Part shown: positions 5,945-22,002 of the stretch, piece after piece
Position numbering within the stretch: the stretch's first letter is position 1
Layout of the letters: every line of letters begins with the position of its first letter
NCBI GenBank assembly: GCA_036253495.1
Contig: GCA_036253495.1_4125.1
Source of the DNA: a phage
Strand: one strand, 5' to 3'
Length of the DNA: 64,000 nucleotides
Made by a program: the position numbers and the translations under genes
Notes under the pieces: generated by a model
What the model saw: the letters and a program-made list of their open reading frames with translations, nothing else
Told to the model about the DNA's origin: nothing
The model's database searches: none

Positions 5945-5980
5945 AATCAAAAAAGAAAAGCCAGTACAGAGTACTGGCAT
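5945..5980 (-). terminator. rho-independent terminator between RCC1 paralogs
   Basis: minus-strand GCCAGTAC-tct-GTACTGGC + TTTTCTTTTTTG. Confidence 0.6.
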
Positions 5981-5989
5981 TTAAAATAA

Positions 5990-7165: not shown

Positions 7166-7195
7166 AATTCCTCCTTTATTCATTATACTATATTT

Positions 7196-7230
7196 AATCA
7201 AAAAAGAAATGCCAGCATCGAGTACTGGCA
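7196..7230 (-). terminator. rho-independent terminator between RCC1 paralogs
   Basis: minus-strand imperfect hairpin GCCAG..CTGGC + T-run. Confidence 0.55.
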
Positions 7231-7236
7231 TTATTG

Positions 7237-8424
7237 TTATAGTTGTCTTGGTGTATCAAGTACATATCTATTTGTACTAGGACCACCATCATCATACGTT
7301 CCGGTTGAATAGATATTTTTCATATCAGTTAGAAATGTACGATACGAACCTCTATATATTTTTATTTTATCATACATAGAATATGTTATTTGTGCTGGCA
7401 GTGGACATGCAGTAAATTTACCAATAGTAACATTAGAACCAACACCCAACGAACCAGCATAACTACTCGCATTTAAACCAGTTGCATATACACCAGTACT
7501 CGTAACTAGTATACTAGATTGTGTTGGGTATCCAGTATGGATTGAATACAAAGTTCCAGTTGGTAGAGTAGTACTATTATTTCCTAATACTGCTAGTGCT
7601 GTACTAGTCGTAGTGTTATTACCCCATGCACCATTACTAGCTAAACCACCCACAAGGAACTGTCGTGCTCCTGTACTTGGATTTTCAACTAAAGCACTGA
7701 CCGCACCACTTGAACAACCAGTATATTGTAATGTTTTTGTATATGTTGTACTTGGCTGATATAAAGTATATTCATTATAGGGAGTCCATGTAGTACTGGA
7801 ACTTATACCGGATGTACCACCACCAATATATAAATTATTTTGTGTATCAAAAAACATTACACAGTTATTTGTTGACTGTATTTGTGCAATATCAACATTA
7901 GGTGTGACAGCTTTTACAAATGATCCATCTGTTATTTGTTGAGTTTGTCCAGTACCATCAGCGAATTGTCTACCCCCACTCCAACCAGTACTCCATATTG
8001 TATTATTATCCATTAAGAAAGTAAACCACGTAGTACCTGCATACATCTGTTTAATTGAAGTACTTGAACTTTGTGTGTACAAATTTTCAATATATTGGTT
8101 ATAACTTAAAAATGATGTAGTACTAGTTTCTAAACCAATATGACTACCATATCCACAATAAAAATAATTTAAGTCATTATCTTGTACTAACAAAGTTCCT
8201 TGTGTCACCCAGCAATCTTTGACATTTTCTCTAATTAATGTCCATGATCTTAGTGCATTATTATTTCCTCTCCCAAATTTTCCAAAACTATTACTTCCTC
8301 GTGCGTATAGTTGACCATCAGTATAAAGTACAACAACATCAGTATCAGTTGGTATTATTTTCTTAATTTGAAGTGGAATAGGTACAATATTTCCATAATC
8401 AAACATTCTAACAAAAGGTAACAT
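7237..8424 (-). CDS. RCC1-like repeat protein, MLPFVRM-anchor paralog
   Basis: N-term MLPFVRMFDYGN; SD AAGGAGG; conserved upstream cassette. Confidence 0.7.
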   Translation of the reverse strand: MLPFVRMFDYGNIVPIPLQIKKIIPTDTDVVVLYTDGQLYARGSNSFGKFGRGNNNALRSWTLIRENVKDCWVTQGTLLVQDNDLNYFYCGYGSHIGLETSTTSFLSYNQYIENLYTQSSSTSIKQMYAGTTWFTFLMDNNTIWSTGWSGGRQFADGTGQTQQITDGSFVKAVTPNVDIAQIQSTNNCVMFFDTQNNLYIGGGTSGISSSTTWTPYNEYTLYQPSTTYTKTLQYTGCSSGAVSALVENPSTGARQFLVGGLASNGAWGNNTTTSTALAVLGNNSTTLPTGTLYSIHTGYPTQSSILVTSTGVYATGLNASSYAGSLGVGSNVTIGKFTACPLPAQITYSMYDKIKIYRGSYRTFLTDMKNIYSTGTYDDGGPSTNRYVLDTPRQL

Positions 8425-8455
8425 AATTCCTCCTTTATTCATTATATTATATTTA

Positions 8456-8490
8456 ATCCAAATAAGAAAGCCAGTATCAAGTACTGGCCT
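8456..8490 (-). terminator. rho-independent terminator between RCC1 paralogs
   Basis: minus-strand GCCAGTA-cttga-TACTGGC + TTTCTTATTTGG. Confidence 0.6.
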
Positions 8491-8494
8491 ATAT

Positions 8495-9664
8495 TTAAAC
8501 TGGTGAATCTAATACAAATTCTAAACTACTAATGCCACCATATGTGACATTTGTCCCTGTGCTATATACAAAATTACCATCAGTTATATAAGTTCGGTTA
8601 TACCCACCTGCCATCTGCGACTTACTATAATCAAACCCATCAGGAACGATTGCTTTGGTATATACTAATGCATTATTAGATGTACCAATACCTAACATAC
8701 CAGCTCCTGAAGATTTATTGTAGCCGCAACAATATATACCATCTGTTGTAGCAATAACTTGGTTATAATATGAAGTAATGTTAGCAATGCTTACTACATC
8801 ACCGGGTGGCATTAGTGAAGCAGTTTGAACCTCAAATGCTCTATAATCACTGAGAGAACCATTTATCCCATCTGCTTGTGCACCAAATATTCTCGAACCG
8901 CCATTTGCGATGATGGTTTTACCAGTGGGATCAGTACCAATTGCCATTGCCATTGAAGTACTATTCTCCATATAGTACTTGATATTAATTGTATTTCTTA
9001 AGCTGGTAGGAGCACCATAATATATAGTATATAACTTACCTCCTGAACTTGTAACTGCATTTACTCTTCCTGTATAAAATAGCCATCCTTGGTTTGTAAC
9101 ATAACCGTGCATTAAATTACTTGCAAACAATTTAACAGGTAATTGATCTGCTGCGGTCGGAACAGTACTTTTGACGAATTTTCTAGCAACATTGTTAGTT
9201 GTTGTCCCATCACCCAACTGACCATCACCCCCTGCTCCAGTACTCCATATTGTTTGGTCTGTTAGTAATACACTTGTAGTCTGATAACTAACTGCTATAT
9301 CTAATATTGGTAATGTTAACGTATCGAATGTTGGCATAGCAGAAGTCCATATTGATACTGCTGCCCCTGGCATACCAACAGTTGTTGAACTTCCACTGTA
9401 CCATATTTCATCATTGCTTTTCTTAATAACTATCGACGTGGCTCCCATCCAAAAATCTTGAACATCAGAAGTGCTAAAAGTCCATGTAGTAACAATATTT
9501 TTGTGACCTAAACCCAAAAGACCATTTGTATTCTCACCACGCACATATAAATCACCACTGTTTGTTAAAACAGCAACATTATAGTTGTTAGCTAGTATTT
9601 TTTTAATATTTGGTTTAGCAGGTGCAATATTCCCATACTCTAACATTCTTACAAAAGGTAACAT
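8495..9664 (-). CDS. RCC1-like repeat protein, MLPFVRM-anchor paralog
   Basis: N-term MLPFVRMLEYGN; motif GAGGDGQLGDGTT; SD AAGGAGG; 44-aa track extension rejected. Confidence 0.7.
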   Translation of the reverse strand: MLPFVRMLEYGNIAPAKPNIKKILANNYNVAVLTNSGDLYVRGENTNGLLGLGHKNIVTTWTFSTSDVQDFWMGATSIVIKKSNDEIWYSGSSTTVGMPGAAVSIWTSAMPTFDTLTLPILDIAVSYQTTSVLLTDQTIWSTGAGGDGQLGDGTTTNNVARKFVKSTVPTAADQLPVKLFASNLMHGYVTNQGWLFYTGRVNAVTSSGGKLYTIYYGAPTSLRNTINIKYYMENSTSMAMAIGTDPTGKTIIANGGSRIFGAQADGINGSLSDYRAFEVQTASLMPPGDVVSIANITSYYNQVIATTDGIYCCGYNKSSGAGMLGIGTSNNALVYTKAIVPDGFDYSKSQMAGGYNRTYITDGNFVYSTGTNVTYGGISSLEFVLDSPV

Positions 9665-9695
9665 AATTCCTCCTTTATTCATTATATTATATTTA

Positions 9696-9730
9696 ATCCA
9701 AATAAGAAAGCCAGTATCAAGTACTGGCTT
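9696..9730 (-). terminator. rho-independent terminator between RCC1 paralogs
   Basis: same cassette as 8456-8490. Confidence 0.6.
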
Positions 9731-9734
9731 TAAT

Positions 9735-10883
9735 TCATTGTATAAATGACATATCAACTTCGGTATATCTTGTAGTGTACTGCCCAGAACTTCCACCCAT
9801 TACTAGATTGGAAAAACCAGTATAAAATAACTTACCTTCATCTGTGAGAATCAAACTACCGATGTTATTCAGTACTAAACTGTAAGAACTATTAAAATTA
9901 GCATAGGACTGGGTATAATAGAACTGATTTGTAAGATTACCAACACCCAATTGTCCACCAGTGTTAACCCCAGTTGCAAATATCGTAGTACCAAATCTGC
10001 GAATATGTGAGGCCATATTGCCGACGCAACAATGTACATTCTGAACATCCGAATTCAATAAAGTTGGTGTTGTGTATTGCTTAAGTGTTGTGCCTGTACC
10101 GAATTCATTACCATATGATACCCCATACTGTGTACCACAAGCGTACAATTTATTATCATCTTTAATAAAAAATGTACTCTGATAACTTACATCGACATCT
10201 ATAACATTAGTCTGTATTCTAACAACTCCAGTACTAGCAGTTTGATTGCCTGTCCCTAACTGATAGTAAGTGTTAATACCACAACCCCATAATGTATTAT
10301 CTTCTTTTAGGTATATGTTACCAACAGCTTTTTTTACCGATGATATGGCTTCAATCTTAACAAAGGCGTTAAATGAATTTGTATTTGTGCCATTACCAAA
10401 AGATGATCTGGTTGATGTGCTGTTTGTTCCGCAGCAATATAAAGTACCATCAGTTGTTATCAAATTCACTTTAAGATCACTGTAACTACTCATGTATTTT
10501 ATATCAGAAACATTAATACCACTGGATGTTATCCATGAAGTACAATCTGTCCACGTGTTATAATATGCACCTGAACCAGAAAACGCACTCGGACTTCCAG
10601 TTATAAACACTTTTCCAGTACCGTCTTCTTCATATAATTGACAACCACTACTGTTATTTTCCAAAAGGACTCTTTTAACATTAGTCGCACTAAGAATAAA
10701 TTTACTCGACGCTACACCAGTTCCAGTACCCTGACTGACTGCCGCTGATGCATACAAATTTTTCGTGTATGTATCATGAAAATACATAGCACTACCGCCG
10801 GAATATATTTTAAAACGTGTACTAGGATCAGGCGGGTTAGGTGCAATATTCCCATAATCTAACATTCTTACAAAAGGTAACAT
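9735..10883 (-). CDS. RCC1-like repeat protein, MLPFVRM-anchor paralog
   Basis: N-term MLPFVRMLDYGN; motifs GINTYYQLGTGN, GVNTGGQLGVGN; close paralog of 13279-14427. Confidence 0.7.
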   Translation of the reverse strand: MLPFVRMLDYGNIAPNPPDPSTRFKIYSGGSAMYFHDTYTKNLYASAAVSQGTGTGVASSKFILSATNVKRVLLENNSSGCQLYEEDGTGKVFITGSPSAFSGSGAYYNTWTDCTSWITSSGINVSDIKYMSSYSDLKVNLITTDGTLYCCGTNSTSTRSSFGNGTNTNSFNAFVKIEAISSVKKAVGNIYLKEDNTLWGCGINTYYQLGTGNQTASTGVVRIQTNVIDVDVSYQSTFFIKDDNKLYACGTQYGVSYGNEFGTGTTLKQYTTPTLLNSDVQNVHCCVGNMASHIRRFGTTIFATGVNTGGQLGVGNLTNQFYYTQSYANFNSSYSLVLNNIGSLILTDEGKLFYTGFSNLVMGGSSGQYTTRYTEVDMSFIQ

Positions 10884-10915
10884 AATTCCTCCTTTATTCA
10901 TTATACTATATTTAA

Positions 10916-10950
10916 TACAAAAAAGAAAAGCCAGTATCAAGTACTGGCAT
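10916..10950 (-). terminator. rho-independent terminator between RCC1 paralogs
   Basis: minus-strand GCCAGTA-cttga-TACTGGC + T-run. Confidence 0.6.
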
Positions 10951-10954
10951 TATG

Positions 10955-12064
10955 TTATTTTGGTAAATCAATTTTAGTAAAGACTGCAACATCCTCGCTT
11001 GCACCGGGAATGGCGTAATACGTTCCAGTACTATATACATCTCCATTTTTGGTTAATATTGAAGTCAAACCATCACTAAAAAGAACATCCCTAATCTCAC
11101 TAACTTCAACGGGTAATTGTAAATTTGTAGCACTATATATAGCACCAGTTTGAGAATTGTTTAATCCCAAACCACGGTTCGCCCCAACACCCTTCTGATA
11201 TGTACTGGTAATTACCATTTGTGTAGCAGTATTTAATGCAGGTGAATTCGTCATAAACAACGGAGAACTATTAGGAAAAGTACTTGCAGGAACTGCACGG
11301 AATGTAGTCGTGCCTGAACTAAGAAAGTTTGGAGTTTGACCACATACGAAATATGATGTACCATTATAGTAATTAAATGCATTACCACCAATGGCTGCAT
11401 CGATTACACCAGAACTACGTAATCCCCAAGTGTTAATTTGTGTTTGGTCCCCTGTACCATGCTGCCCACTGCTATTCCATCCAGAACTATATAGCTTATT
11501 ATCTAATGTAATATACATACTATCATTTGCATTAGTCATTACTTTACGCACGTTAGTAGCACATTGAGTTAATGTGTAAATCGATGATGAGCCAATACCT
11601 AAAGAACCACGATATCCATTATCTCCTGCACCATAGAGTACTGAACTAGTGCTAAGTACAAATATTAAACCATTTGTACATACAATATTAGCAATTTCAC
11701 TCACTGGTATAGCATTGGTAAACCAATTAGTCCTTTCAACTAATATAGTACTGTAAGAAGTAGTTGTAGAAGATGAGAACCAGTACGTTTCACCCGATGT
11801 CCATATCGTATTATCATTTTTAATAATAACAAGTGTACGACCACCCACGAAAAAATTAGAAACATCTGAACTTACTAATATCCATGAAGATACCGTGTTG
11901 TTATTACCATTTCCAGATTCACCACCTTGATTTCTACCTATGTAATATAAATCATGTGAATCAGTCAATAAGAATTGACCCTGTGTAGAAGCACCAACTT
12001 TAATTATATTTTTAGGACCGGGTGTAATATTTCCATAATCAAACATTCTAACAAAAGGTAACAT
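10955..12064 (-). CDS. RCC1-like repeat protein, MLPFVRM-anchor paralog
   Basis: N-term MLPFVRMFDYGN; motif GWNSSGQHGTGD; SD AAGGAGG. Confidence 0.7.
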   Translation of the reverse strand: MLPFVRMFDYGNITPGPKNIIKVGASTQGQFLLTDSHDLYYIGRNQGGESGNGNNNTVSSWILVSSDVSNFFVGGRTLVIIKNDNTIWTSGETYWFSSSTTTSYSTILVERTNWFTNAIPVSEIANIVCTNGLIFVLSTSSVLYGAGDNGYRGSLGIGSSSIYTLTQCATNVRKVMTNANDSMYITLDNKLYSSGWNSSGQHGTGDQTQINTWGLRSSGVIDAAIGGNAFNYYNGTSYFVCGQTPNFLSSGTTTFRAVPASTFPNSSPLFMTNSPALNTATQMVITSTYQKGVGANRGLGLNNSQTGAIYSATNLQLPVEVSEIRDVLFSDGLTSILTKNGDVYSTGTYYAIPGASEDVAVFTKIDLPK

Positions 12065-12074
12065 ATTTCCCTCC

Positions 12075-13205
12075 TTAATTTAATAATGCCCCTGGCAAAT
12101 CCACTTTGACGAATTGTGCATATGCTGAGGAATTTTGATCAAAGTTTGGTCCCAATCCATAAAATGAGCTAATGCCGTCTTCATTTGTGTATATGATATA
12201 AACGTTCTTTACATCATTTCCGCATATAAATCGAATGTCTTTCGTTTGTGTTCCCGCTGGAACATTACGAAGGTTAACAACGCCATTACTTGCATTGTTA
12301 TCAGCCGACGCAATTGGTAATTGATTTTGATCATATTGACCACGCATATTTTTTGCATCTAAACCAAACACAGTATTTGATACCGCACCAACTTTCAAAA
12401 ATGAACCAAAACTATTATTGAATGACTTTGGAAATTTACCACTATAAACACTTCTCCCATCTGATAATACCGCTGAACTGAATGCCCCGCTATTCGATAT
12501 GGCAAATTCATTGTAAGGAAGTGTACCCATTTTGGTATATACAGAATATGAATTAGTGGAAGTATTATCAATAATCTTATTACCATTATATCCAATACCA
12601 TACTGGTATCCGTCTGCATCTTGAACTATACACAAAGGACCACTTGGGGTTTGTGTCAACGAAACAACACGTTCAACTTGTATATCACCAAATGTATTTC
12701 TTCGCCATGTTCTATCTATTATAGTACTAGTATTACCCAAAGATAATGCCACACTATATAATAGATTGTTTTCAGTAAAAATGGCAACATAATATGGGTG
12801 GTTAATAACTTGCTTCATCCCAGCATCAATAACTTCCTGTGGAATATGATCAGTAACATCCAACCAATCAAGGTTAGATGATGCAATATCTGGAGTACTG
12901 AATTTGTCAAATCTAGTTGAGCCACAAACTAGCACTCTATCATCATTTGTCAAAGCCACTGTGCTAGTCTGCATATTAGAACTGAATGATTTAACATTAC
13001 TAATGTTAGACTTGTACCAACCCTTATCAGCAGCACCCACCGTGAATCCGGTTCCCATTGATCCACTTGTACTTGTACCATAAGCCCACATCTCACCACT
13101 ATATGTTAGTGCCATACAGTGGCTTCCATTTGCTTGGAAATCCTTTATACCAGTGGGAGCAACCACTGTATTCCCATAATTAAACATTCTAACAAAAGGT
13201 AACAT
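12075..13205 (-). CDS. RCC1-like repeat protein, MLPFVRM-anchor paralog
   Basis: N-term MLPFVRMFNYGN; tightly coupled to downstream paralog (10-nt gap, SD AAGGAGGG). Confidence 0.65.
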   Translation of the reverse strand: MLPFVRMFNYGNTVVAPTGIKDFQANGSHCMALTYSGEMWAYGTSTSGSMGTGFTVGAADKGWYKSNISNVKSFSSNMQTSTVALTNDDRVLVCGSTRFDKFSTPDIASSNLDWLDVTDHIPQEVIDAGMKQVINHPYYVAIFTENNLLYSVALSLGNTSTIIDRTWRRNTFGDIQVERVVSLTQTPSGPLCIVQDADGYQYGIGYNGNKIIDNTSTNSYSVYTKMGTLPYNEFAISNSGAFSSAVLSDGRSVYSGKFPKSFNNSFGSFLKVGAVSNTVFGLDAKNMRGQYDQNQLPIASADNNASNGVVNLRNVPAGTQTKDIRFICGNDVKNVYIIYTNEDGISSFYGLGPNFDQNSSAYAQFVKVDLPGALLN

Positions 13206-13237
13206 ATTTCCCTCCTTTATTCATTATACTATATTTA

Positions 13238-13272
13238 ATCAAAAATAAAAGCCAGTACTTGAGTACTGGCAT
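13238..13272 (-). terminator. rho-independent terminator between RCC1 paralogs
   Basis: minus-strand GCCAGTACTC-aa-GTACTGGC + TTTTATTTTTG. Confidence 0.6.
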
Positions 13273-13278
13273 ATTAAT

Positions 13279-14427
13279 TCATTGTATAAATGACATATCT
13301 ACTTCTGTATAATTAAGAACGTTCTGTCCAGAAATACCACCCATTACTACTATTGCAATGCCACAATAATATAATTTTCCAGTATCCGTAAGTATAAGTG
13401 ATCCAGATGGACTGCGTACCAAATTACAAGAGGTATTAAACGAAGTATATGAAGGAGTATAGGAGTACTGATTAATATTATTACCAACACCTAATTGACC
13501 AGACGAGTTGCTTCCAGATGCATAAAGTACTTCATCACCTTTAACTATATGTGATGCCATGTTACCAACACAAGTATATAAACTATAAACACCTGCACTC
13601 AATAATGTGGGAGTTTTATATTGTATATCAGTAGAAGAGGAAGTACCACCTGTACCAAATTCGTTCCCATATTGTGCACCGAACTGTTTACCACAAGCGT
13701 ACAAATTATTATCCGATTTGATAAAAAATGTACTCTGATAACTTACATTAAAATCTATAACATCCGAAGAAATCATCGTCACCCCAGTAATAGAAGTTTG
13801 ATTACCCGTGCCCAACTGGTAGTAATAGTTAAAACCACAACCCCATAAAGTATTATCTTCTCGCAAATAAATGTTACCAACTGCCTTTTTAACCGAAGTT
13901 ATAGTATCTACTCTTTTGAATGTGTTAAAAGAATTAATGTTTGTACCATCACCAAATGATGATATGTTCGATATATTGTTAGCTCCACAACAATACAATG
14001 TACCATCGTTTGTTATCAAATTCACCTTCATATCATAAAAACTACTCATGTATTTTATATCAGAAACATTAATACCACTTGATGTTATCCACGTAGTACA
14101 GTCCGTCCACAAAGTTTTTCTATCAGTTACACCAGTGAATGCCTTCGTGTTACCAGTGATAAAAACTTTTCCAGTACCTTTCTCTTCATACAATTGACAA
14201 TCACTACTGTTATCTTCCAATAGAACTCGTTTAACATTCTCCGCACAAAGAATAAATTTACTCGATGCTACACCTGTACCAGTACCCCAATTCGTCGCAG
14301 AAGATGCATACAACTTATCAGTATAAGTATCATGAAGATACATGGAATCACTGGAATATATTTTAAAACGTCCATCATCACCAGGGGCAATATTCCCATA
14401 ATCAAACAATCTAACAAAAGGTAACAT
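13279..14427 (-). CDS. RCC1-like repeat protein, MLPFVRM-anchor paralog
   Basis: N-term MLPFVRLFDYGN; motifs GFNYYYQLGTGN, GSNSSGQLGVGN; first gene of minus-strand cluster. Confidence 0.7.
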   Translation of the reverse strand: MLPFVRLFDYGNIAPGDDGRFKIYSSDSMYLHDTYTDKLYASSATNWGTGTGVASSKFILCAENVKRVLLEDNSSDCQLYEEKGTGKVFITGNTKAFTGVTDRKTLWTDCTTWITSSGINVSDIKYMSSFYDMKVNLITNDGTLYCCGANNISNISSFGDGTNINSFNTFKRVDTITSVKKAVGNIYLREDNTLWGCGFNYYYQLGTGNQTSITGVTMISSDVIDFNVSYQSTFFIKSDNNLYACGKQFGAQYGNEFGTGGTSSSTDIQYKTPTLLSAGVYSLYTCVGNMASHIVKGDEVLYASGSNSSGQLGVGNNINQYSYTPSYTSFNTSCNLVRSPSGSLILTDTGKLYYCGIAIVVMGGISGQNVLNYTEVDMSFIQ

Positions 14428-14475
14428 AATTCCTCCTTTATTCATTATAATATATTTAATCAAAAAAGAAAACCC

Positions 14476-14504
14476 TTGACACCCTTTCAGTACTGATGTA
14501 CTAT
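14476..14504 (+). promoter_or_regulatory. sigma70-like promoter for family A array (divergent from RCC1 cluster)
   Basis: TTGACA - 17 nt - TACTAT, then SD AAGGAG and ATG at 14530. Confidence 0.55.
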
Positions 14505-14529
14505 ATGAGAAATCTAAGGAGAATCGTAC

Positions 14530-14757
14530 ATGCCATATGCTCTAAAGTACTACATCAATGAACTAAATGAACTAGAGTACGCAAAGGTTCTCTCTGACCA
14601 ATCGTGGCTAATTGAACTAAAAAATCAGAAGAGCACTGGGTGTAACCTTATGCTTGGTAGTGCACTGAATACCCTTACTGTGAGCATTGTACACAATACA
14701 CTATTAGGGGATACCCGTAAACAATTTTTAAACATCTTAGTACTAGTGGCTATATGA
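14530..14757 (+). CDS. small hypothetical protein, family A-like
   Basis: SD AAGGAG; first ORF after divergent promoter; N-term YALKYY. Confidence 0.55.
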   Translation: MPYALKYYINELNELEYAKVLSDQSWLIELKNQKSTGCNLMLGSALNTLTVSIVHNTLLGDTRKQFLNILVLVAI

Positions 14758-14954
14758 ACATTAACCCGTACTACATCAATGCATTGCACCCTGGGCTACA
14801 AGATGCAATGAAGAACCAAAAAACAGTACTGAAAAATGCTAAACGCATACCAGGACTCCTGAACTCAAACAGGAATAACCTCATCTGGAATGCAATAGAA
14901 GGTAACGAAAGTATGCAGTACTATTTCATCTTAACACTACTATTGGAGTACTAA
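14754..14954 (+). CDS. small hypothetical protein, family A
   Basis: ATGA overlap with upstream; N-term PYYINAL, C-term LTLLLEY. Confidence 0.6.
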   Translation: MNINPYYINALHPGLQDAMKNQKTVLKNAKRIPGLLNSNRNNLIWNAIEGNESMQYYFILTLLLEY

Positions 14955-14955
14955 T

Positions 14956-15165
14956 ATGAATACTGAACATAAAGAATTCTACACCAAATACCTCAGCAAC
15001 GAAGAACAAATGTTTCTAAGGAGTGTACCACCTGTAAGTATAGACACACCCAACACAAGGAATTGCTTTAATAATTGTATACGTAGTACTCTAGAAGCTA
15101 TTGAATGCAATAACAAAAATATGCAGTACTCAAGTTTAATCGGACTAATATACTTCTATGAATAA
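14956..15165 (+). CDS. small hypothetical protein, family A
   Basis: N-term HKEFYTKYL, C-term LIGLIYFYE; coupled. Confidence 0.65.
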   Translation: MNTEHKEFYTKYLSNEEQMFLRSVPPVSIDTPNTRNCFNNCIRSTLEAIECNNKNMQYSSLIGLIYFYE

Positions 15166-15352
15166 TCATAAAGATTTCTACTGTAGTAAACTACACAAGC
15201 AAGACCAGCTATCATTCTCTTTAGCACCACCTATGAGAAAGGATAATCTATATTACAATTACGATTTCAGGATGGCGACACGTTATGCAATAGAACATCA
15301 GTTCCCTGAAACTAAGTACCGCTCTATCCTGAACCTCATCTTTAAGTTCTAA
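15158..15352 (+). CDS. small hypothetical protein, family A
   Basis: N-term HKDFYCSKL, C-term LNLIFKF. Confidence 0.65.
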   Translation: MNNHKDFYCSKLHKQDQLSFSLAPPMRKDNLYYNYDFRMATRYAIEHQFPETKYRSILNLIFKF

Positions 15353-15363
15353 AAAGGTACTAT

Positions 15364-15576
15364 ATGAAAACTACAAACATTCATCAGTACTACATAGATA
15401 TTCTACCTAAAGATGTACAGTTCATACTTAAACAAGAATTCAGTACTTTTAAAAAACTTAAAAGAACCGCACCTTCAGCAATCATCCTGCACCACAAACA
15501 TGTCGTGCGTAATATTCTACAAGGTGCAACAGGGACCGAGTACTTTAATATAGTAAGGCTAATTACATTACAATGA
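15364..15576 (+). CDS. small hypothetical protein, family A
   Basis: N-term HQYYIDIL, C-term IVRLITLQ. Confidence 0.6.
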   Translation: MKTTNIHQYYIDILPKDVQFILKQEFSTFKKLKRTAPSAIILHHKHVVRNILQGATGTEYFNIVRLITLQ

Positions 15577-15758
15577 ATCATATAAGCTACTATTACCAAA
15601 AACTATCCGACAGAGACAAGTACAGCCACAACTCCCATGTGTGGTACTACAAACGCGGCAGTATAAGAGACAAACAACATTACTTCTGTACTGCTATAAA
15701 AGAAGTACTAACAACTAAGTACACGTACAGAGCAGTACTTAAACTTATTGAAATGTAG
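15573..15758 (+). CDS. small hypothetical protein, family A
   Basis: N-term SYYYQKL, C-term VLKLIEM; ATGA overlap. Confidence 0.6.
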   Translation: MNHISYYYQKLSDRDKYSHNSHVWYYKRGSIRDKQHYFCTAIKEVLTTKYTYRAVLKLIEM

Positions 15759-15766
15759 AGAATACA

Positions 15767-15946
15767 ATGCTAGAATACTACCTAAGCGTAATTTACCCAG
15801 AAGATAGATACGGCTTCAATTACTTCTCAATGAGCTATCATTGTAGTTCGCAAAGAAAACAAAGAAAATTACTCCTGAATTGTACTAAATTGGCACAGGA
15901 CGAAATGTTCACATATAATGAAGTACTGAAACTAATTTCTATCTAA
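15767..15946 (+). CDS. small hypothetical protein, family A (59 aa, not in ORF track)
   Basis: MLEYYLSVIY...YNEVLKLISI; below the 60-aa track cutoff. Confidence 0.6.
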   Translation: MLEYYLSVIYPEDRYGFNYFSMSYHCSSQRKQRKLLLNCTKLAQDEMFTYNEVLKLISI

Positions 15947-15954
15947 GGTACACT

Positions 15955-16134
15955 ATGCAAGAATTCTATATCTATAAACTCCAGAACAAAGATAGATACA
16001 TCTATAATCAATTCCAAAGGTACTACACAGTCGGGAACAAAAGAGATAAAAAACGATACCTGCTATCATGTACAGTAGAAGCACAAAACGAAAAGTACAC
16101 GTACAGAGAAGTACTGAAACTAATCTCTATATAA
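15955..16134 (+). CDS. small hypothetical protein, family A (59 aa, not in ORF track)
   Basis: MQEFYIYKLQNKDRY...YREVLKLISI; close paralog of 15767-15946. Confidence 0.6.
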   Translation: MQEFYIYKLQNKDRYIYNQFQRYYTVGNKRDKKRYLLSCTVEAQNEKYTYREVLKLISI

Positions 16135-16144
16135 GGAATAAACT

Positions 16145-16324
16145 ATGCTAGAGTACTACACCGATAATCTCAGTACTAAGGATCGTTTCATGTACGACAC
16201 CTTCGTGAAGTACTACAACCTGGGAACAAAAAGTACTAAAACTATTAATCTCAATAGCTGCATTCATCACGTCCTGACAAAAAATAACCCATACAGAGAA
16301 ATAATCTCGCTTGTAACAGTATAA
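16145..16324 (+). CDS. small hypothetical protein, family A (59 aa, not in ORF track)
   Basis: MLEYYTDNLSTKDRF...YREIISLVTV; overlapping antisense track ORF 16148-16429 rejected. Confidence 0.6.
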   Translation: MLEYYTDNLSTKDRFMYDTFVKYYNLGTKSTKTINLNSCIHHVLTKNNPYREIISLVTV

Positions 16325-16352
16325 GCAGTATAAGCAATTTAAGGAGACTAAA

Positions 16353-17024
16353 ATGAAACTCAATCCACAAAGCAAACGATACCTACAGCACTTCAAGTAC
16401 CTGCAATCAATCCAGGCTGAATCTACCACTAATGCATATACTTATCACCCTAATGTACTAAAGAACCTAAAGAAAAGTAAAAAAACCAGTACAAATGGAG
16501 TTAACGTATCAAAGAACCTTGAATTGTACATGAAGAAAAATAATATAGCTGTTCATTATATGAATATCTATAATACTGATTTAAAAGTATTGAGTACTAA
16601 TACGAGCATGAAGGTACTAAAGAACGCATCCTTCATCATCCATATGCAGTTGGATAATACCCCGTGCACTTTAATGCTATACTTCGGGAATACATACTTC
16701 TTCGGGAATTGTAACACCTCCCACGATGTCAATACAGCACAATTCCAAATGGGTGGCATATACAGTATGGGTTCAGAAGAAATACACGATAACATGCATT
16801 TCTTCCAACAGCAACGTACAGAAGAAACTAAATCAATTGTAGAATTCCTCAAAGAACTAGAACACAAAGAATTATCAGAAGAAGAACTATTCATGTACAG
16901 TACTGTAATCGATAATCCTGTACTGTACAAAAACGCGTACAATCTTACAAAACATGTACAGGAACTTATCAGTACTAATAAGAAAATTCATCACCTCATT
17001 ACATATATTACAAACTATGCATAA
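16353..17024 (+). CDS. hypothetical protein (223 aa) with family C-like EEELFMYSTVID motif
   Basis: SD AAGGAGA; embedded in family A array; C-terminal motif resembles family C core. Confidence 0.6.
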   Translation: MKLNPQSKRYLQHFKYLQSIQAESTTNAYTYHPNVLKNLKKSKKTSTNGVNVSKNLELYMKKNNIAVHYMNIYNTDLKVLSTNTSMKVLKNASFIIHMQLDNTPCTLMLYFGNTYFFGNCNTSHDVNTAQFQMGGIYSMGSEEIHDNMHFFQQQRTEETKSIVEFLKELEHKELSEEELFMYSTVIDNPVLYKNAYNLTKHVQELISTNKKIHHLITYITNYA

Positions 17025-17199
17025 AGAATACTACGTAAGTAAACTTACAATAGATCTCCAAAAACTTATTCCCCAAAAACCTGTAGATTTCAAAGATAAA
17101 AGCCAAACTATATTCTACCGATATCAAACAGAATCTGCAATAAATGAAGATGATATCTATAACTTGTACAATGTACTAACACTTATATACAGGTACTAA
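17017..17199 (+). CDS. small hypothetical protein, family A
   Basis: start MHKEYYVSKL overlaps upstream stop (ATGCATAA); C-term LTLIYRY; track extension rejected. Confidence 0.65.
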   Translation: MHKEYYVSKLTIDLQKLIPQKPVDFKDKSQTIFYRYQTESAINEDDIYNLYNVLTLIYRY

Positions 17200-17200
17200 T

Positions 17201-17389
17201 ATGCACAAAGAATACTACACAAAATATTTCCCAATGTACCTCATAACTAATCTATTAGATAAACCTCGCGGTATCAATGCACAAAACGATAAAAAGTACT
17301 TTACTATGTGCACTAAAGCATGTATACAAGATTATGATAGCTATCATCGAGCACTGTACCACACCCTGTACCTCGCATTCGTGTACTAA
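17201..17389 (+). CDS. small hypothetical protein, family A
   Basis: MHKEYYTKYFPM...LYLAFVY. Confidence 0.7.
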   Translation: MHKEYYTKYFPMYLITNLLDKPRGINAQNDKKYFTMCTKACIQDYDSYHRALYHTLYLAFVY

Positions 17390-17398
17390 GGAAATAAT

Positions 17399-17584
17399 AT
17401 GCATAAAGAATACTACATAAATAAACTCCCAATGCATCTACAATACCTTGTACCAACAAAACCATTGGGTATAGAAAAAGACTACGAAAAAGACTACTTC
17501 GTTAAGTGCACTAAATCCTCGATAGATATTGACGACTATAATCGAGTACTGTATCACATCCTTTTACTAATATATAAGTACTAA
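17399..17584 (+). CDS. small hypothetical protein, family A
   Basis: MHKEYYINKLPMHLQYLVPTKPLGI...LLLIYKY. Confidence 0.7.
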   Translation: MHKEYYINKLPMHLQYLVPTKPLGIEKDYEKDYFVKCTKSSIDIDDYNRVLYHILLLIYKY

Positions 17585-17585
17585 T

Positions 17586-17774
17586 ATGAACGACTATAAA
17601 GAATACTACCAAGATAAACTCCCAATGCATCTCCAACACCTTGTGCCAACAAAACCATTGGGCATAAAAGATCATGCAAAAATAATGTTCCAACAATGTA
17701 CTAAGTACACCCTAATATACGATGACAATCCATATATGCTGTACTACATAACAATGCTAATATTCAGGTACTAA
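17586..17774 (+). CDS. small hypothetical protein, family A
   Basis: MNDYKEYYQDKLPMHLQHLVPTKPLGI...MLIFRY. Confidence 0.7.
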   Translation: MNDYKEYYQDKLPMHLQHLVPTKPLGIKDHAKIMFQQCTKYTLIYDDNPYMLYYITMLIFRY

Positions 17775-17776
17775 TC

Positions 17777-17977
17777 ATGTATAAAGAATACTATATGAGT
17801 AAACTATCAAGCACCGAAAGAATCTGGTGCGAAGCCGCCGCCCCCGTTAATCCAAAAAGTGCATACGCAAAAATGGGCTTTAGGAAAGCTACAACGAACT
17901 CAATTGAAGCTCTAGAACAAGATGACACTAAAGCACTATACTCTAACCTAATGTTGCTAGTATATATCTATGGATAA
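17777..17977 (+). CDS. small hypothetical protein, family A
   Basis: MYKEYYMSKL...LLVYIYG. Confidence 0.65.
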   Translation: MYKEYYMSKLSSTERIWCEAAAPVNPKSAYAKMGFRKATTNSIEALEQDDTKALYSNLMLLVYIYG

Positions 17978-18161
17978 TTATAAAGAATACTATAAACAAT
18001 TTGTTAAAGAGAACTACAAAGATGCCGTCCCCGTAATCCCTTTAAATTCCCATGACCCAAGTTCTATATTCTTGTTTAAGGACGCAATACGTACAGTACT
18101 CAATACTAAAGATGAACAGGTGCAGTACGTATTCTTACTATTACTTATATACAGACACTAA
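17970..18161 (+). CDS. small hypothetical protein, family A
   Basis: MDNYKEYYKQF...LLLIYRH. Confidence 0.65.
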   Translation: MDNYKEYYKQFVKENYKDAVPVIPLNSHDPSSIFLFKDAIRTVLNTKDEQVQYVFLLLLIYRH

Positions 18162-18162
18162 T

Positions 18163-18360
18163 ATGAATGACCATAAAGAATTCTATATAAGTAAACTCAA
18201 AGAGAATGAACAAGTATGGATTAACGCTCTAATCCCTCTACCAATGACTCGATATGAATTTAATAAATGTACTAATATAGCAATAGACCCTTCTCCTGTT
18301 CTAGAGAATGTACAGTACAATCAGTACTACTATATCTTAATGCTTATATATAGGAAGTAA
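18163..18360 (+). CDS. small hypothetical protein, family A
   Basis: MNDHKEFYISKL...LMLIYRK; track N-terminal extension from 18052 rejected. Confidence 0.65.
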   Translation: MNDHKEFYISKLKENEQVWINALIPLPMTRYEFNKCTNIAIDPSPVLENVQYNQYYYILMLIYRK

Positions 18361-18990
18361 TTAAACACATATAGCTAGGGGAAGCTCCGTAGTGCAAGCA
18401 TTATACAGGCTTTAACATATGTTGCATATGTTAAAATTCAGCCTGGACAAATGCGATCACTAGGATTCTCCCCAGGCTAAACCCCGTAATCATAAGTAAT
18501 CATATATAAACATTTAAGTAATCATTTATAATCATTGTAGTGAACAGTATTGAGTACTAGAGTGCAGGAATGATTCAGAATGATTCAGTACTGATATCCC
18601 ACTAAGTAGGCAAATGAAGTCGCCCAAAATTTACATAATTTTACAGTACTGAACAATTGCAAAACAAATCATTTCCAATCAAAAGTAATCACGGAATGAC
18701 CAGTACTGAAAACTCCCAATCACCTATTCAAAAAAGTTCAATTTACCCTTTGTCAAAAATCCCGAATACCCATTGGGGAAAATTCCGAATACCCCTTGAG
18801 GCTCCAGCAAAAAGTTGGTTAGTACTCCATCGTAAATCTGGATCGTAAAAATTTTGGAGTACCTATGAAATAAAAGTTGGATCTTCGAAAGTTGAAATTT
18901 ACATTGGGACATATAGGATTAGTGGGATATAATGAGTTTTGAAGAGATACAGAGTATACGATTTCAGTACTGAATAATGGAAGAAATCTA

Positions 18991-19018
18991 TTGACATTAT
19001 GATTCAGTACTGTATAAT
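18991..19018 (+). promoter_or_regulatory. sigma70-like promoter with no downstream ORF
   Basis: TTGACA - 16 nt - TATAAT with AGTACTG spacer; T-run about 115 nt downstream. Confidence 0.5.
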
Positions 19019-19140
19019 GTTCTACATAGAGTGATGAATTGCCGCAAACAATTCAGAGCCTTAGCCCTCCTGTCGTGAGACAGTACAGAAGAGATTGAAT
19101 CCTCCTATGCAGTGGTTCATCTTTGACAACCTCTTTTTTC
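19019..19140 (+). ncRNA. candidate small non-coding transcript
   Basis: starts after promoter 18991-19018; no ORF or SD; internal hairpin CTGTC-gtga-GACAG; ends at CCTCTTTTTTCG. Confidence 0.25.
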
Positions 19141-19150
19141 GTAATATAAA

Positions 19151-19219
19151 CAGTACTGTTATTAACAGAATGGTAGCAGTACTGTTATTAACAGAATGGT
19201 AGCAGTACTGATATTAATC
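19151..19219. repeat. tandem direct repeat (26 bp x 2.6)
   Basis: CAGTACTGTTATTAACAGAATGGTAG x2 then CAGTACTGATATTAATC. Confidence 0.85.
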
Positions 19220-19372
19220 TAATATAATGTTACCATGCAATGTGGTGAATTTCCCTTAACAGTATTCAGTACTACATGATAGTCTTCATCCTCCTAGGGT
19301 AACATAGTGAGGGCTATGATGGCAGTACTGAATACTCCCTTCTTAAAGATAGATCTATGGTATAGTACTGAC

Positions 19373-19413
19373 GGATTTTGGGCGTAGTAACCCTGGGTGG
19401 ATTTTGGACGTAG
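19373..19413. repeat. direct repeat GGATTTTGG(G/A)CGTAG x2
   Basis: two copies 11 bp apart; related motif recurs at ~19745 and ~19950. Confidence 0.7.
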
Positions 19414-19444
19414 AGATGCCTAGCCCTCCAGAAGTCTGGAAGTA

Positions 19445-19592
19445 AAGATGGCTATCCCTCTAGACGGCTGGATGGCTGGATGGCTAGATTTCTAGATGGC
19501 TGTACTGCTAGACGTTTGGACGGCTAAACGGCTAGATGGTTAAACGTCTGGATGTATAGACGGTTAAATCAAAATTTTTATTTTGTTTTTTC
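19445..19592. repeat. iteron-like array plus AT-rich tract (candidate replication origin)
   Basis: about 10 degenerate copies of (T/G)(A/G)GA(T/C)GG(C/T)T in ~125 bp, followed by AAAATTTTTATTTTGTTTTTTCC. Confidence 0.4.
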
Positions 19593-19725
19593 CAATAGTT
19601 CCCCTACCGCGTGGGGATGGTTTCCCCGCAGTATCTGGAGTTAGATTTTTCTGAATCTGGAAACATTATCCCAGTTTTAGCGGGGTATGTCAACCGCCTG
19701 GATGAATATTTTTAAAAAATAATCT

Positions 19726-19808
19726 AGTACTGAATTTTGGGCGTAACTATGCACCCGGTGGGCTAGAGTCTTTCTCGACTTGATGAAATAATTATAGCAG
19801 TACTGAAT
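19726..19808. repeat. ~80-bp repeated intergenic element (copy 1)
   Basis: AGTACTGAATTTTGGGCGTA..GCACCCGGTGGGCTAGAG..TAATTATAGCAGTACTGAA; copies at 19944-20030 and 24041-24127. Confidence 0.6.
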
Positions 19809-19943
19809 TATAAAAGCAATAGCCTAAGTGTAAAAAGTTTTAATTAATTTGCTTGCCATCCTGGGGCGTACTATGGTACTATGATTCAGTACTGAGAAAG
19901 TACTTTGACCCGCTAGGGTGCGGGAGTGTATCCTTTTTAAATT

Positions 19944-20030
19944 TACTGAATTTTGGGCGTAGTTCCGCACCCCCTGGGGTATCCGCTTTCTCGCGTCTAT
20001 GTAGTAATTATACGCTTTTTTAGTACTGAG
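19944..20030. repeat. ~80-bp repeated intergenic element (copy 2)
   Basis: ACTGAATTTTGGGCGTAG..CACCCCCTGGGG..TAATTATACG..AGTACTGA. Confidence 0.55.
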
Positions 20031-20269
20031 TCAATAGCTAAAAACAAAATAATTGAAAATAATTTAACGCGTTTAAACGGCCCGTAAAGCCCTGGATTGT
20101 TGGGAGTGGTGCAAATGTATAGCTTAGGTGTATTAATGCGTTAGAATGCGTCTGAGGCCGTTTTAAGGGTATAGTACTGAATAATTGTACTCACTGGATT
20201 GATTCAGTACTGAATGATAGTACTCCTATATAGAAAGAAAACTATTTTAAAAGTATTTGCAGAAAGTAC

Positions 20270-20297
20270 TTGCATACTATGTTTAAGGGCGTATAAT
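20270..20297 (+). promoter_or_regulatory. early promoter
   Basis: AAAGTACTTGCAT ... TATAAT GTTTTACATC. Confidence 0.6.
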
Positions 20298-20353
20298 GTT
20301 TTACATCGAGACGGGGGAAACGCTCCTAACTCACTTTAATAGGAATTAAAACG

Positions 20354-20716
20354 ATGGCGACTCAAATCACTAAAATCATTGCTAACCTGGTTAACTTTCG
20401 CGAAGAGATGAAAGATCTTCCGGCTGAGACTGTAAAGATTCATATTTCAGCTTATCGGGAATTGATTGCAATGTTGCCGCTTAAGCGTGAACAATACGCC
20501 GCTACTGTGATGCTTGATGCGATGATCCACAAGATGATTGCCAGTGATTTAACGATGGCTTATCAGTACATGGGCGAACTATTTGCGGTGTATAGTAAAC
20601 CAGTGCCTGGGATGGAAAGTACAGAAGTATTGCACGGCTTAAACTTAAAACAAGATGCATGGGATAATATGCCTCGTTTCCTGGTATGGGCTGACAGTGG
20701 CAAGATTTACGAATAA
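20354..20716 (+). CDS. hypothetical early protein
   Basis: 120 aa; promoter TTGCAT/TATAAT upstream; SD AGGA. Confidence 0.65.
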   Translation: MATQITKIIANLVNFREEMKDLPAETVKIHISAYRELIAMLPLKREQYAATVMLDAMIHKMIASDLTMAYQYMGELFAVYSKPVPGMESTEVLHGLNLKQDAWDNMPRFLVWADSGKIYE

Positions 20717-20730
20717 GTTTTAAAAAGTAC

Positions 20731-20758
20731 TTGCAAAGTAAGTTTAAAAGCGTATAAT
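20731..20758 (+). promoter_or_regulatory. early promoter + 5' stem-loop
   Basis: TTGCAA-16-TATAAT; hairpin GTGGGGAA-tag-TTCCCCAC at ~20770-20789. Confidence 0.65.
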
Positions 20759-20810
20759 GTTTTACATCAGGTGGGGAATAGTTCCCCACTATATAAGAGG
20801 ATTTTTAATT

Positions 20811-21050
20811 ATGGCTACTACTAAAACTTTCAACGGTCACAAAAACAAAACTCATTGGAATGTAAGCCTTTGGATTAATAACGATGAGTCATTGTATCGT
20901 CTGGCGAAAGAATTTATCGACGCTAATACTAATCGTAATGATGCGGCCCGTCATATGATGCTATTTTTAGAACAAATTGGACAAGATAAAACTCCAGACG
21001 GTTTCAAGTATAGCACTACGGCGATCCGTGCTGCAATGGTTGGAATGTAA
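20811..21050 (+). CDS. hypothetical early protein
   Basis: 79 aa from MATTKTF; promoter + 5' hairpin + SD AGAGGA; track extension rejected. Confidence 0.65.
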   Translation: MATTKTFNGHKNKTHWNVSLWINNDESLYRLAKEFIDANTNRNDAARHMMLFLEQIGQDKTPDGFKYSTTAIRAAMVGM

Positions 21051-21071
21051 GAGAATAGATTTAAAGTACTA

Positions 21072-21096
21072 TTGCACGGTGATAGTACTTTATAAT
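21072..21096 (+). promoter_or_regulatory. possible promoter (weak spacing)
   Basis: TTGCAC ... TATAAT with short spacer. Confidence 0.3.
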
Positions 21097-21132
21097 AGAT
21101 TTCTTTTATACAACAACGATAGGGGTAACAGC

Positions 21133-21399
21133 ATGAATATTATATACTTTGCAACGCGTGAACAAGCTCGGCAAGCGGCAAAGGTTGACGGTGCAACGTT
21201 TAAAGATATGGGCGTACAATCTGAACGTGGTAAACGTTGGGCCGTAGTAAAGCAAAGTACAGCCCGATCAATTCAGTACTGGCTATCGGCTTTAAAGAGT
21301 CCTGATAGTGTATCGCGTCGAGTGGTAGAAATAAAGCACGACCGCAAGGGCAACCGTGTTACTGTGTACAGTACTAAAAAGATTGCAGTACTTGAATAA
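21133..21399 (+). CDS. hypothetical early protein (paralog of 33805-34200)
   Basis: 88 aa; shares FYATREQAR..GA.FKDMG..RWAV and HDRKGNRVTVYS with 33805-34200. Confidence 0.65.
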   Translation: MNIIYFATREQARQAAKVDGATFKDMGVQSERGKRWAVVKQSTARSIQYWLSALKSPDSVSRRVVEIKHDRKGNRVTVYSTKKIAVLE

Positions 21400-21405
21400 A
21401 AGTAC

Positions 21406-21433
21406 TTGCAAAGTAATTAGATTAACGTATAAT
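21406..21433 (+). promoter_or_regulatory. early promoter + 5' stem-loop
   Basis: TTGCAA-16-TATAAT; hairpin GTGGGGAA/TTCCCCAC. Confidence 0.65.
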
Positions 21434-21486
21434 ACTTTCTATCAGGTGGGGAATAGTTCCCCACTACAAATAAGAGGATTTTTAAA

Positions 21487-21717
21487 ATGGCTATTATGTA
21501 TATGACCGAAGTTAAAACCGTAAAAGATACTACCACTAATAAAACTACTTACTTACAGCGGGTATGCGGTGTATGGCAACGTATTAGTAAAGCAAAGTAC
21601 TTTAAATTAACATCATATGCTAATCGTTCGGATTCATTCAGTACTGAAATAAAAGGTAATAAATTACACCAATACGGCACTTATTATTATTATAGCCTGG
21701 ACGCGATTGCAGTCTAA
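21487..21717 (+). CDS. hypothetical early protein
   Basis: 76 aa; 5' region nearly identical to that of 20811-21050. Confidence 0.65.
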   Translation: MAIMYMTEVKTVKDTTTNKTTYLQRVCGVWQRISKAKYFKLTSYANRSDSFSTEIKGNKLHQYGTYYYYSLDAIAV

Positions 21718-21747
21718 GCAGTTTACAAATCTTTACAATTGCCGGTA

Positions 21748-21776
21748 TTGACTTATTTTGTCAGTACTGGCATAAT
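21748..21776 (+). promoter_or_regulatory. sigma70-like promoter in non-coding region
   Basis: TTGACT-17-CATAAT. Confidence 0.5.
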
Positions 21777-21968
21777 GTATCTATTGAAACGAACAATTTG
21801 GCCCACGGGGTGCGGGAGTGTATCTATAGAAAAAGTAGTTTAGTACAGTTACAATTGTGCACCCTATGGGTTAGCTGTTGTCATGGGGTATATTATACCA
21901 GTACTTGATAATGCTGTCAATACTTTTTTTTTACTATTCAGTACTGAAAACTATTTTTTAAAAAGTAC

Positions 21969-21996
21969 TTGCATACTATGTTTAAAGGCGTATAAT
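21969..21996 (+). promoter_or_regulatory. early promoter (upstream of structured leader)
   Basis: AAAAAGTACTTGCAT ... TATAAT GTTTTACATCAG. Confidence 0.6.
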
Positions 21997-22002
21997 GTTT
22001 TA

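Follow-up and report, generated by a model that had tools for sequence, protein, structure and literature searches.

In large eukaryotic DNA viruses, tandem multigene families are well known from the ends of the genome, among them the MGF110, MGF360 and MGF505 families of African swine fever virus and the terminal families of poxviruses. Host-takeover modules in the terminal redundancies of phages are represented by gp37-60 of SPO1 and the pre-early genes of T5. A lineage-specific expansion of about 35 zinc-ribbon proteins has been described in Bacillus phage G (Iyer et al. 2021, PMC7824862), and tandem gene arrays have been noted for the phages 121Q and phAPEC6, in a single sentence each (PMC5646251; PMC7247149). 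The DNA analysed here, a stretch of 64,000 nucleotides (nt) from contig GCA_036253495.1_4125.1 of assembly GCA_036253495.1 (hereafter the window), belongs to an Asteriusvirus jumbo coliphage of the 121Q/PBECO4 group. Its + strand holds, at positions 14530–18360, an uninterrupted run of 17 open reading frames (ORFs), consisting of 16 small ones of 59–75 amino acids (aa) and a single larger one of 223 aa, termed X. Rather than a uniform family, the 16 small ORFs form a superfamily of three subfamilies.

All-versus-all BLASTP and profile searches divide the small ORFs into subfamily A (m03, m04 and m11–m17; nine members), subfamily B (m06–m09; four members) and subfamily C' (m01, m02 and m05; three members). 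After enlargement with orthologs from eight other phages, the subfamilies comprised 66 (A), 20 (B) and 16 (C') unique sequences. Profile–profile alignments of these sets with hhalign are full-length and colinear for A and C' (94% probability, E 2e-7), for A and B (70%, E 4e-5) and for B and C' (54%, E 1e-4). In a leave-one-out test, each member was compared with a profile of the other 15, alongside 1000 composition-matched shuffles of the same member. All 16 members scored above every one of their own shuffles (12.9–70.2 bits versus a shuffle maximum of 8.5–13.4), m01 alone being marginal. Conservation thus exceeds composition, the point on which a profile alignment of the members was to decide according to the original prediction, a reading of this DNA from its letters and ORF list. 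That prediction had described about 16 tiny paralogous genes in tandem, and 16 are indeed found on the + strand by profile tests, by selection and by comparison with the eight other phages. The single consensus it had proposed for them (HKEYY..KL ... LLLIYKY) holds for the nine members of subfamily A and fails for the seven in the two more distant subfamilies.

Pairwise identity between paralogs in the array is 14–57%. All four subfamily-A members submitted (m03, m13, m15, m17) match PHROG 11711 from end to end (E 1e-12 to 3.5e-27), and none of the five submitted B or C' members does so at E 0.01 or better; PHROG 11711 carries no assigned function. No match of the array above the curated threshold was obtained in Pfam, NCBIfam or PADLOC, and none in a search of PDB sequences. 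A match of m05 to a HigB toxin (E 0.02, 15.6 bits versus a cutoff of 27) was dismissed as noise. With 16 homologous neighbours in the same orientation, varying copy number and maintained coding, the locus has the attributes of a tandem multigene family.

The array opens with m01 (14530–14757, 75 aa; leave-one-out 12.9 bits), which is 99% identical to its ortholog A4_246 in phage A4, and m02 (14754–14954, 66 aa; 24.6 bits), whose start overlaps the m01 stop in an ATGA. They are followed by m03 (14956–15165, 69 aa; PHROG 11711 at E 1.2e-13, leave-one-out 51.4 bits) and m04 (15158–15352, 64 aa; 87.7 bits with the subfamily-A profile, leave-one-out 36.8 bits), and by m05 (15364–15576, 70 aa; 18.1 bits), which is present in only some phages. 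The B block comprises m06 (15573–15758, 61 aa; 30.3 bits) and three genes of 59 aa, m07 (15767–15946; 13.9 bits versus a shuffle maximum of 8.8), m08 (15955–16134; 39.6 bits) and m09 (16145–16324; 32.7 bits). ORF X (16353–17024), which has an AAGGAG ribosome-binding site of its own, separates the B block from a distal A block. The latter consists of m11 (17017–17199, 60 aa; 35.3 bits), overlapping the end of X by 8 nt, m12 (17201–17389, 62 aa), m13 (17399–17584, 61 aa; PHROG 11711 at E 3.5e-27), m14 (17586–17774, 62 aa; 46.1 bits), m15 (17777–17977, 66 aa; PHROG 11711 at E 2.6e-12), m16 (17970–18161, 63 aa; 28.0 bits) and the last array gene, m17 (18163–18360, 65 aa; PHROG 11711 at E 2.4e-20). 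The starts of m11 and m17 were corrected: the ORF-track entries 16954–17199 and 18052–18360 have a family-type methionine at 17017 and 18163, respectively, and the upstream extensions were trimmed.

Judging by their sequences, the array ORFs are real genes. The pooled ratio of nonsynonymous to synonymous substitution rates (dN/dS) of the array versus five phages is 0.24–0.45, with values of 0.05–0.36 for m06, 0–0.22 for m08 and 0.14–0.21 (at dS up to 1.0) for m09; for m12 it is 0.14–0.19 versus more distant phages and 0.71 versus the near-identical A4. Positive selection is not supported overall, a dN/dS above 1 being seen in m13 and m17 only, on very few substitutions. Among 163 ortholog-like pairs, dN/dS is 0.22 in the first 10 codons, 0.15 in the last 12 and 0.34–0.37 in the middle, and dS at the termini is not reduced. 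Because dN/dS is low there without a drop in dS, the termini are constrained at the level of the protein and not of the DNA; a DNA-level constraint at the gene junctions as the cause of the conserved termini was ruled out for the same reason. The original prediction had also counted the three 59-aa ORFs at 15767, 15955 and 16145 as genes despite their absence from the ORF track, whose cutoff they fall below. They are genuine, being annotated in phage A4 as A4_251–253 (m07 is identical to A4_251) and having a dN/dS of 0–0.22 versus their orthologs. In A4, 121Q, E9.1, JP4 and G17 the array ORFs appear in the annotation as hypothetical proteins. Many GenBank records, including those of PBECO4, SP27, BF17, slurp01, Sharanji and phAPEC6, lack a coding-sequence feature for several array members whose ORFs are intact. 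ORF cutoffs of at least 60 aa, and many deposited annotations, therefore overlook real genes at this locus.

The DNA of positions 14400–18400 matches 36 phage records, all of them jumbo phages of Escherichia or Salmonella that belong to the Asteriusvirus group (121Q, PBECO4, G17, phAPEC6). The closest relative is phage A4 with 95% identity, most others being near 85%. A tblastn search of 50,697 phage records found the family in 36, a set identical to that of the DNA search. At the protein level, a word-indexed search of 5.8 billion proteins returned 35 family entries, and an exhaustive profile search of 1.84 billion representatives returned 30 clusters (41–69 aa), of which all with a named source are from Escherichia phages. 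The entries of both searches are all single-domain proteins of 41–84 aa, and every named one comes from an Asteriusvirus-type phage of Escherichia or Salmonella.

In nine phages the gene order C' C' A A (C') B(3–6) X A(7–12) is kept, giving 16–22 small genes, and the position of X between the B block and the distal A block is the same in all nine. The order of A-type cassettes past X differs between phages, and many array members of other phages are only 33–55% identical to any member in the window. Even the 95%-identical phage A4 has no close ortholog of m13, its best match being 50% identical. Comparison of these genomes indicates that the array evolves between closely related phages by gain, loss and replacement of whole paralog cassettes.

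A promoter of the sigma-70 type precedes the array on the + strand at 14476–14504 (TTGACA-17-TACTAT, with CAGTACTG in the spacer; 10 of 12 positions in a consensus scan), and an AAGGAG ribosome-binding site, read from the sequence, precedes the first gene at 14516–14521. Both are conserved in nine of nine phages, the promoter being identical or nearly so, in agreement with the single promoter that had been placed in this divergent intergenic region beforehand. Another sigma-70 match, inside m07 (15890), is not conserved in paralogous position and was regarded as incidental. The distances between consecutive ORFs range from -8 to +28 nt. Four of the junctions read TAATATG, two are ATGA overlaps, three are overlaps of 8 nt and the others are short gaps, several of which carry an AAGG-type ribosome-binding site; several ORFs have no Shine-Dalgarno sequence. 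Since most of the later genes begin -8 to +2 nt from the preceding stop, the arrangement indicates that most array genes are translationally coupled. No terminator-like site was found inside the run from 14530 to 18360, and the array reads as a single rightward operon. Beyond its end lies a long stable inverted repeat on the + strand (18372–18479, 108 nt; minimum free energy -47.3 kcal/mol, z = -6.2), whose outer stem is invariant in nine phages and whose inner part occurs in two variants. This hairpin shows no informative covariation. As it lacks a run of T, it does not qualify as a canonical intrinsic terminator; it may mark the 3' end of the operon or be a DNA element beside the terminus. 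A scan of the window found no transfer RNA genes, and a search of 14–21 kb against Rfam gave only a sub-threshold match to an archaeal small nucleolar RNA.

The most informative context, which the original prediction did not mention, is that the array ends 244 bp before a direct terminal repeat of about 21 kb. G17 has an exact direct terminal repeat of 20,668 bp, for which its authors had inferred some 20 kb from read coverage (PMC6563267), and the 20,993-bp repeat of fEgEco12 was confirmed by PhageTerm and restriction digests (PMC13070987). The repeat starts of both phages map to one homologous base, window position 18605 (...GATATCCCACTA, boundary, AGTAGGCA...), which is thus the inferred first base of the repeat and the genome terminus. 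The distance from array end to repeat start is 266 bp in G17 and 303 bp in fEgEco12. Of the unique transcription units in packaged DNA, the array comes last, reading toward the right-hand copy of the repeat.

The repeat-equivalent stretch of the window, about 18605–40317, contains about 55 small, well-spaced genes on the + strand. It carries promoters of two repeated types, both built around AGTACT. The first, TTGACA-N9-AGTACTG-TATAAT, occurs in about 12 copies and is often followed by a GGGGAGAA...TTCTCCCC hairpin; the second, AAAGTACTTGCA-N17-(C/A)GTATA, occurs in 17 copies, all on the + strand. The promoter of the array shares TTGACA and the spacer AGTACTG with promoters of the repeat and resembles the first class. 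The terminus itself lies in an ORF-free stretch of 2 kb (18361–20353) with 22 AGTACT sites, no Rfam match and strong promoter matches on both strands, among them a perfect consensus promoter at 18991 (TTGACA-16-TATAAT). It also contains tandem repeats of 23 bp x2.4 (18744–18798), 26 bp x2.6 (19151–19217) and 16/24 bp (19460–19554), and is a candidate packaging, replication or leader region.

By hydropathy the array proteins are soluble, with a highest 19-residue Kyte-Doolittle mean of at most 1.2, and below 0.8 in subfamilies A and B. Small membrane proteins such as holins or superinfection-exclusion proteins were accordingly rejected on hydropathy, there being no transmembrane segment. The proteins contain 10.8% tyrosine, are poor in glycine, valine and tryptophan, and have isoelectric points (pI) of 5.3–10.0. 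Several members are basic (pI 9.1–10.0, net charge +4 to +6), and the loops of subfamily B are rich in lysine and arginine; about half of the members are neutral to mildly acidic, and 11 of 16 have a net charge of +2 or less. The conserved columns of subfamily A are K3, E4, Y/F5, Y6, L10, P22, F34, C37, T/I38, I/L42, L/Y51, Y52, L55, L57, I58, Y/F59 and Y61. Aromatic or hydrophobic residues predominate among them, and the conserved part consists of the N- and C-terminal motifs, whereas residues 12–33, a loop of about 20 residues, and most other helix positions vary strongly. An AlphaFold2 model of m13 from an alignment of 35 sequences (mean predicted local distance difference test, pLDDT, 91.5; predicted template modelling score 0.75) has helices at residues 2–7, 12–15, 28–43 and 47–59, predicting a compact four-helix fold. 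A comparison of this model with solved structures gave no significant fold match.

Based on this dataset, we hypothesize that the array encodes diversified, non-structural host-interaction effectors, made from transcripts of the host polymerase and binding diverse host or defence targets; we give this reading a probability of roughly 45%. It is favoured because the promoter class, the absence of the proteins from virions (see below), the conserved core with variable positions and the variability at strain level fit it. The array proteins would not be part of the virion and would be made from transcripts of the host RNA polymerase. Each paralog would combine the common scaffold with a different surface and so may bind a different host or defence target, with a role in host takeover or counter-defence. 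The turnover of cassettes would then track differences between host strains.

Several points weigh against this hypothesis. Neither homology nor fold matches suggest a target or activity (family libraries, PDB sequences and fold searches), and a literature search found no expression or functional data for the family, nor transcriptome or phenotype data for Asteriusvirus. The timing of expression is read from the promoter sequence alone, and the structure is a single predicted monomer from a single subfamily. The array lies outside the terminal repeat, which looks like an early module. Close orthologs are under purifying and not positive selection, so that an arms race would find its support in cassette turnover alone. 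Finally, the tight translational coupling equally suits proteins that act as a complex.

A further-reaching proposal, which we consider rather doubtful, is that Asteriusviruses would keep a new-fold effector scaffold beside the terminus as a library of exchangeable cassettes, which would be the phage equivalent of the terminal multigene families in African swine fever virus and poxviruses. Host factors or defences would be neutralised by one paralog each, and the set of cassettes present would determine the host range.

Among the alternatives to host-interaction effectors, it is conceivable, though improbable, that the small proteins are subunits of one hetero-oligomeric assembly, or assembly factors for neighbouring virion fibre proteins. 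On the minus strand at 4562–14463, back to back with the array, lie eight tandem paralogs of 369–472 aa which the annotations of relatives call RCC1-like 'regulator of chromosome condensation'. Their copy number differs between phages, and JP4 has extra copies next to the array. In the virion proteome of phAPEC6 (62 proteins), the array proteins gp540c–548c are absent and the neighbouring RCC1-like gp549 and gp551 are present. This neighbourhood with two virion orthologs speaks for an assembly role, as does coupling, which favours co-expression at fixed ratios, and subunits could meet through the conserved N- and C-terminal motifs. However, the array is divergent from the RCC1-like genes and is read from the sigma-70-type promoter, not from the late-type element that faces those genes; there is no one-to-one pairing with fibre genes, the proteins themselves were not found in virions, and the free variation of paralog content between phages would sit badly with an obligate complex. 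A tail-fibre assembly chaperone would be expected immediately downstream of, and co-transcribed with, a fibre gene, and was rejected as the array is on the strand opposite to the RCC1-like genes and has its own promoter. As to the late-type element, TAAATA/TATTTA is the most under-represented hexamer of the window (22 versus 79 expected). One copy in the divergent intergenic region (14448–14460) is located about 30–40 nt upstream of the minus-strand RCC1-like gene; this would fit a late promoter of the T4 type (TATAAATA-like), with avoidance of the motif elsewhere.

The next two alternatives involve a marked bias in the DNA of the window. Relative to base composition, AGTACT occurs 271 times versus 22 expected and GTAC 664 times versus 208 (window 1–64000, with a peak at 14000–22000). 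The top Markov z-scores of this bias are +9.2 and +22.7, respectively. GCGC is absent (0 versus 61 expected), and GATC and CATG are depleted as well. Relative to codon-order shuffles, GTAC is in excess in every gene set (ratio 1.7–3.6), most strongly in the array, where its density is the highest in the window (19.6 per kb versus 9.8) and three times the codon-shuffle expectation. GTAC sites are conserved versus G17 above tetramers of the same composition, both in the array (72% versus 55%) and in the repeat (82% versus 72%). The ratio of the tyrosine codons TAC and TAT in the array is 79:31, reversed with respect to gene sets elsewhere in the window (58:216, 104:128, 59:84 and 162:212). Within the array, 42% of the TAC codons are preceded by G, though 13% of codons end in G, and the codon of the invariant Tyr6 is TAC in some members and TAT in others. 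The bias could reflect a binding or modification motif, or a context bias. A bolder variant of the proposal of exchangeable effector cassettes would have the conserved tyrosine codons double as (A)GTAC(T) DNA motifs under genome-wide selection. If this were true, the array would be shaped by constraints at the protein and the DNA level together.

We see a slim prospect that the proteins are small regulators that bind nucleic acids (transcription or nucleoid factors, for instance) and possibly recognise the over-represented AGTACT. The basic members, the Lys/Arg-rich loops of subfamily B, and the excess of AGTACT together with its place in the terminal-repeat promoters may point in this direction, and lineage-specific expansions of small DNA-binding domains have a precedent in phage G (PMC7824862). 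However, family libraries gave no DNA-binding signature, be it a helix-turn-helix, a zinc ribbon or another, the fold comparison matched no DNA-binding protein, the charges given above leave most members at +2 or less, and co-occurrence alone ties the family to AGTACT.

It appears very unlikely that the region matters mainly as DNA, as a GTAC-rich, duplication-prone buffer beside the terminus (for packaging, recombination or genome length) whose proteins are of little consequence. The density and conservation of GTAC in the array, and its location next to the terminal repeat, are in line with this idea, and tandem duplication has been proposed as a way to fill larger capsids (PMC5646251). However, ORF lengths, start–stop coupling and residue patterns are kept, dN/dS is well below 1 and lowest at the termini without a drop in dS, the fold prediction for m13 is confident, and the paralogs are old and divergent (14–57% identity) and not recent filler duplications. 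Chance reading frames in AT-rich DNA that are not translated, an idea to which the very short ORFs (59–75 aa), their lack of annotation in many GenBank records and the missing Shine-Dalgarno sequences of several might lend some credit, are effectively excluded by the data, namely seventeen consecutive same-strand ORFs conserved in nine phages, purifying selection, profile homology beyond composition and a confident fold.

ORF X matches PHROG 29152 (E 2.4e-136) and carries a KELSEEELFMYSTVID motif. The original prediction had linked it to the large arrays further downstream. This link stands at the level of a 16-residue motif: the KELSEEELFMYSTVID segment aligns with the core motif of the downstream family in hhalign (71%, E 3.7e-5 over 16 columns; profile E 0.016), and the sequences at hand suggest a relation at motif level only. 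In the shared motif, E-x-x-F-x-x-S(T/L)(V/I), F180 is invariant and E177 and S183 are conserved to at least 90% (42 sequences). X as a fused member of the array superfamily was rejected (hhalign 0.3–1.8%), though a weak resemblance to subfamily B is seen in its last 50 residues (E 0.017). The structure model of X is poor (pLDDT 47). The downstream family (44958–63759) has at least 31 tandem members of 102–212 aa, with ..EE(L/Y)FQxS(L/T)(V/I)xD near a helical C-terminal region, and is split over many PHROGs with no assigned function. This EELFQ motif resembles the cleavage sites (E-x-x-Y/L-F-Q, cut, S/G) of TEV and 3C-type proteases. Another tandem family, of about 25 proteins of 61–96 aa with the motif (L/F)LGTNYQ...Y(I/L)..L, is located at 40368–46942 and 55745–56169. 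It corresponds to PHROG 4148, which has no assigned function, and begins at the inner edge of the terminal repeat.

Orthologs of X named P0061, P0063 and P0073, with P0068 listed alongside, are recorded under 'Escherichia coli' on contigs of roughly 350–359 kb. The contigs of the first three look like whole Asteriusvirus genomes in bacterial assemblies, which would be consistent with lytic phage genomes reported in such assemblies (PMC12768965).

The genes of jumbo phages are mostly of unknown function, and Asteriusviruses are under development for therapy against pathogenic E. coli. A compact, sharply delimited and highly variable locus of mini-proteins with a confidently predicted fold is a tractable place to seek new host-takeover or counter-defence activities, and the array is a candidate determinant of differences between otherwise near-identical phages. 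Together with the two further paralog families at the edges of the terminal repeat, it gives a testable picture of genome growth.

Compared with described systems, the published Asteriusvirus arrays (PMC5646251; PMC7247149) represent the same phenomenon in the same genus, that is, tandem duplication leading to arrays of paralogs. However, the published number of more than 30 is a better fit for the downstream EELFQ-motif family than for the array of 16–22 copies, and neither publication covers the family described here, its subfamilies, fold, promoter or position. PHROG 11711 is the same family as subfamily A; subfamilies B and C' are not captured by it and are joined by profile–profile comparison only. 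The families of African swine fever virus and poxviruses resemble the array in being tandem paralogs beside terminal repeats, with strain-variable copy number and content, and accessory rather than structural. They differ in having unrelated sequences and folds and other hosts, and their role in host range or immune evasion is established by experiment, whereas that of the array is inferred. With the modules of SPO1 and T5 the array shares many small genes without assigned function, a place near the terminus and, as predicted from sequence, a promoter of host type. However, in SPO1 and T5 the modules are situated within the terminal repeat and do not form paralog families, whereas the array is located 244 bp outside the repeat; the terminal repeat of the window itself contains other, single-copy small genes. 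The zinc ribbons of phage G are likewise a large expansion of a tiny protein domain in a jumbo phage, from which the present family differs by the lack of a zinc-binding Cys/His pattern and by its predicted all-helical fold. Subfamily A as a PHROG, the tandem arrays in 121Q and the lineage-specific multigene families of large viruses were thus already known; new here are the joining of three subfamilies into a single superfamily, a model of the fold, an architecture that is conserved while cassettes turn over, the class of the promoter and the position at the edge of the terminal repeat.

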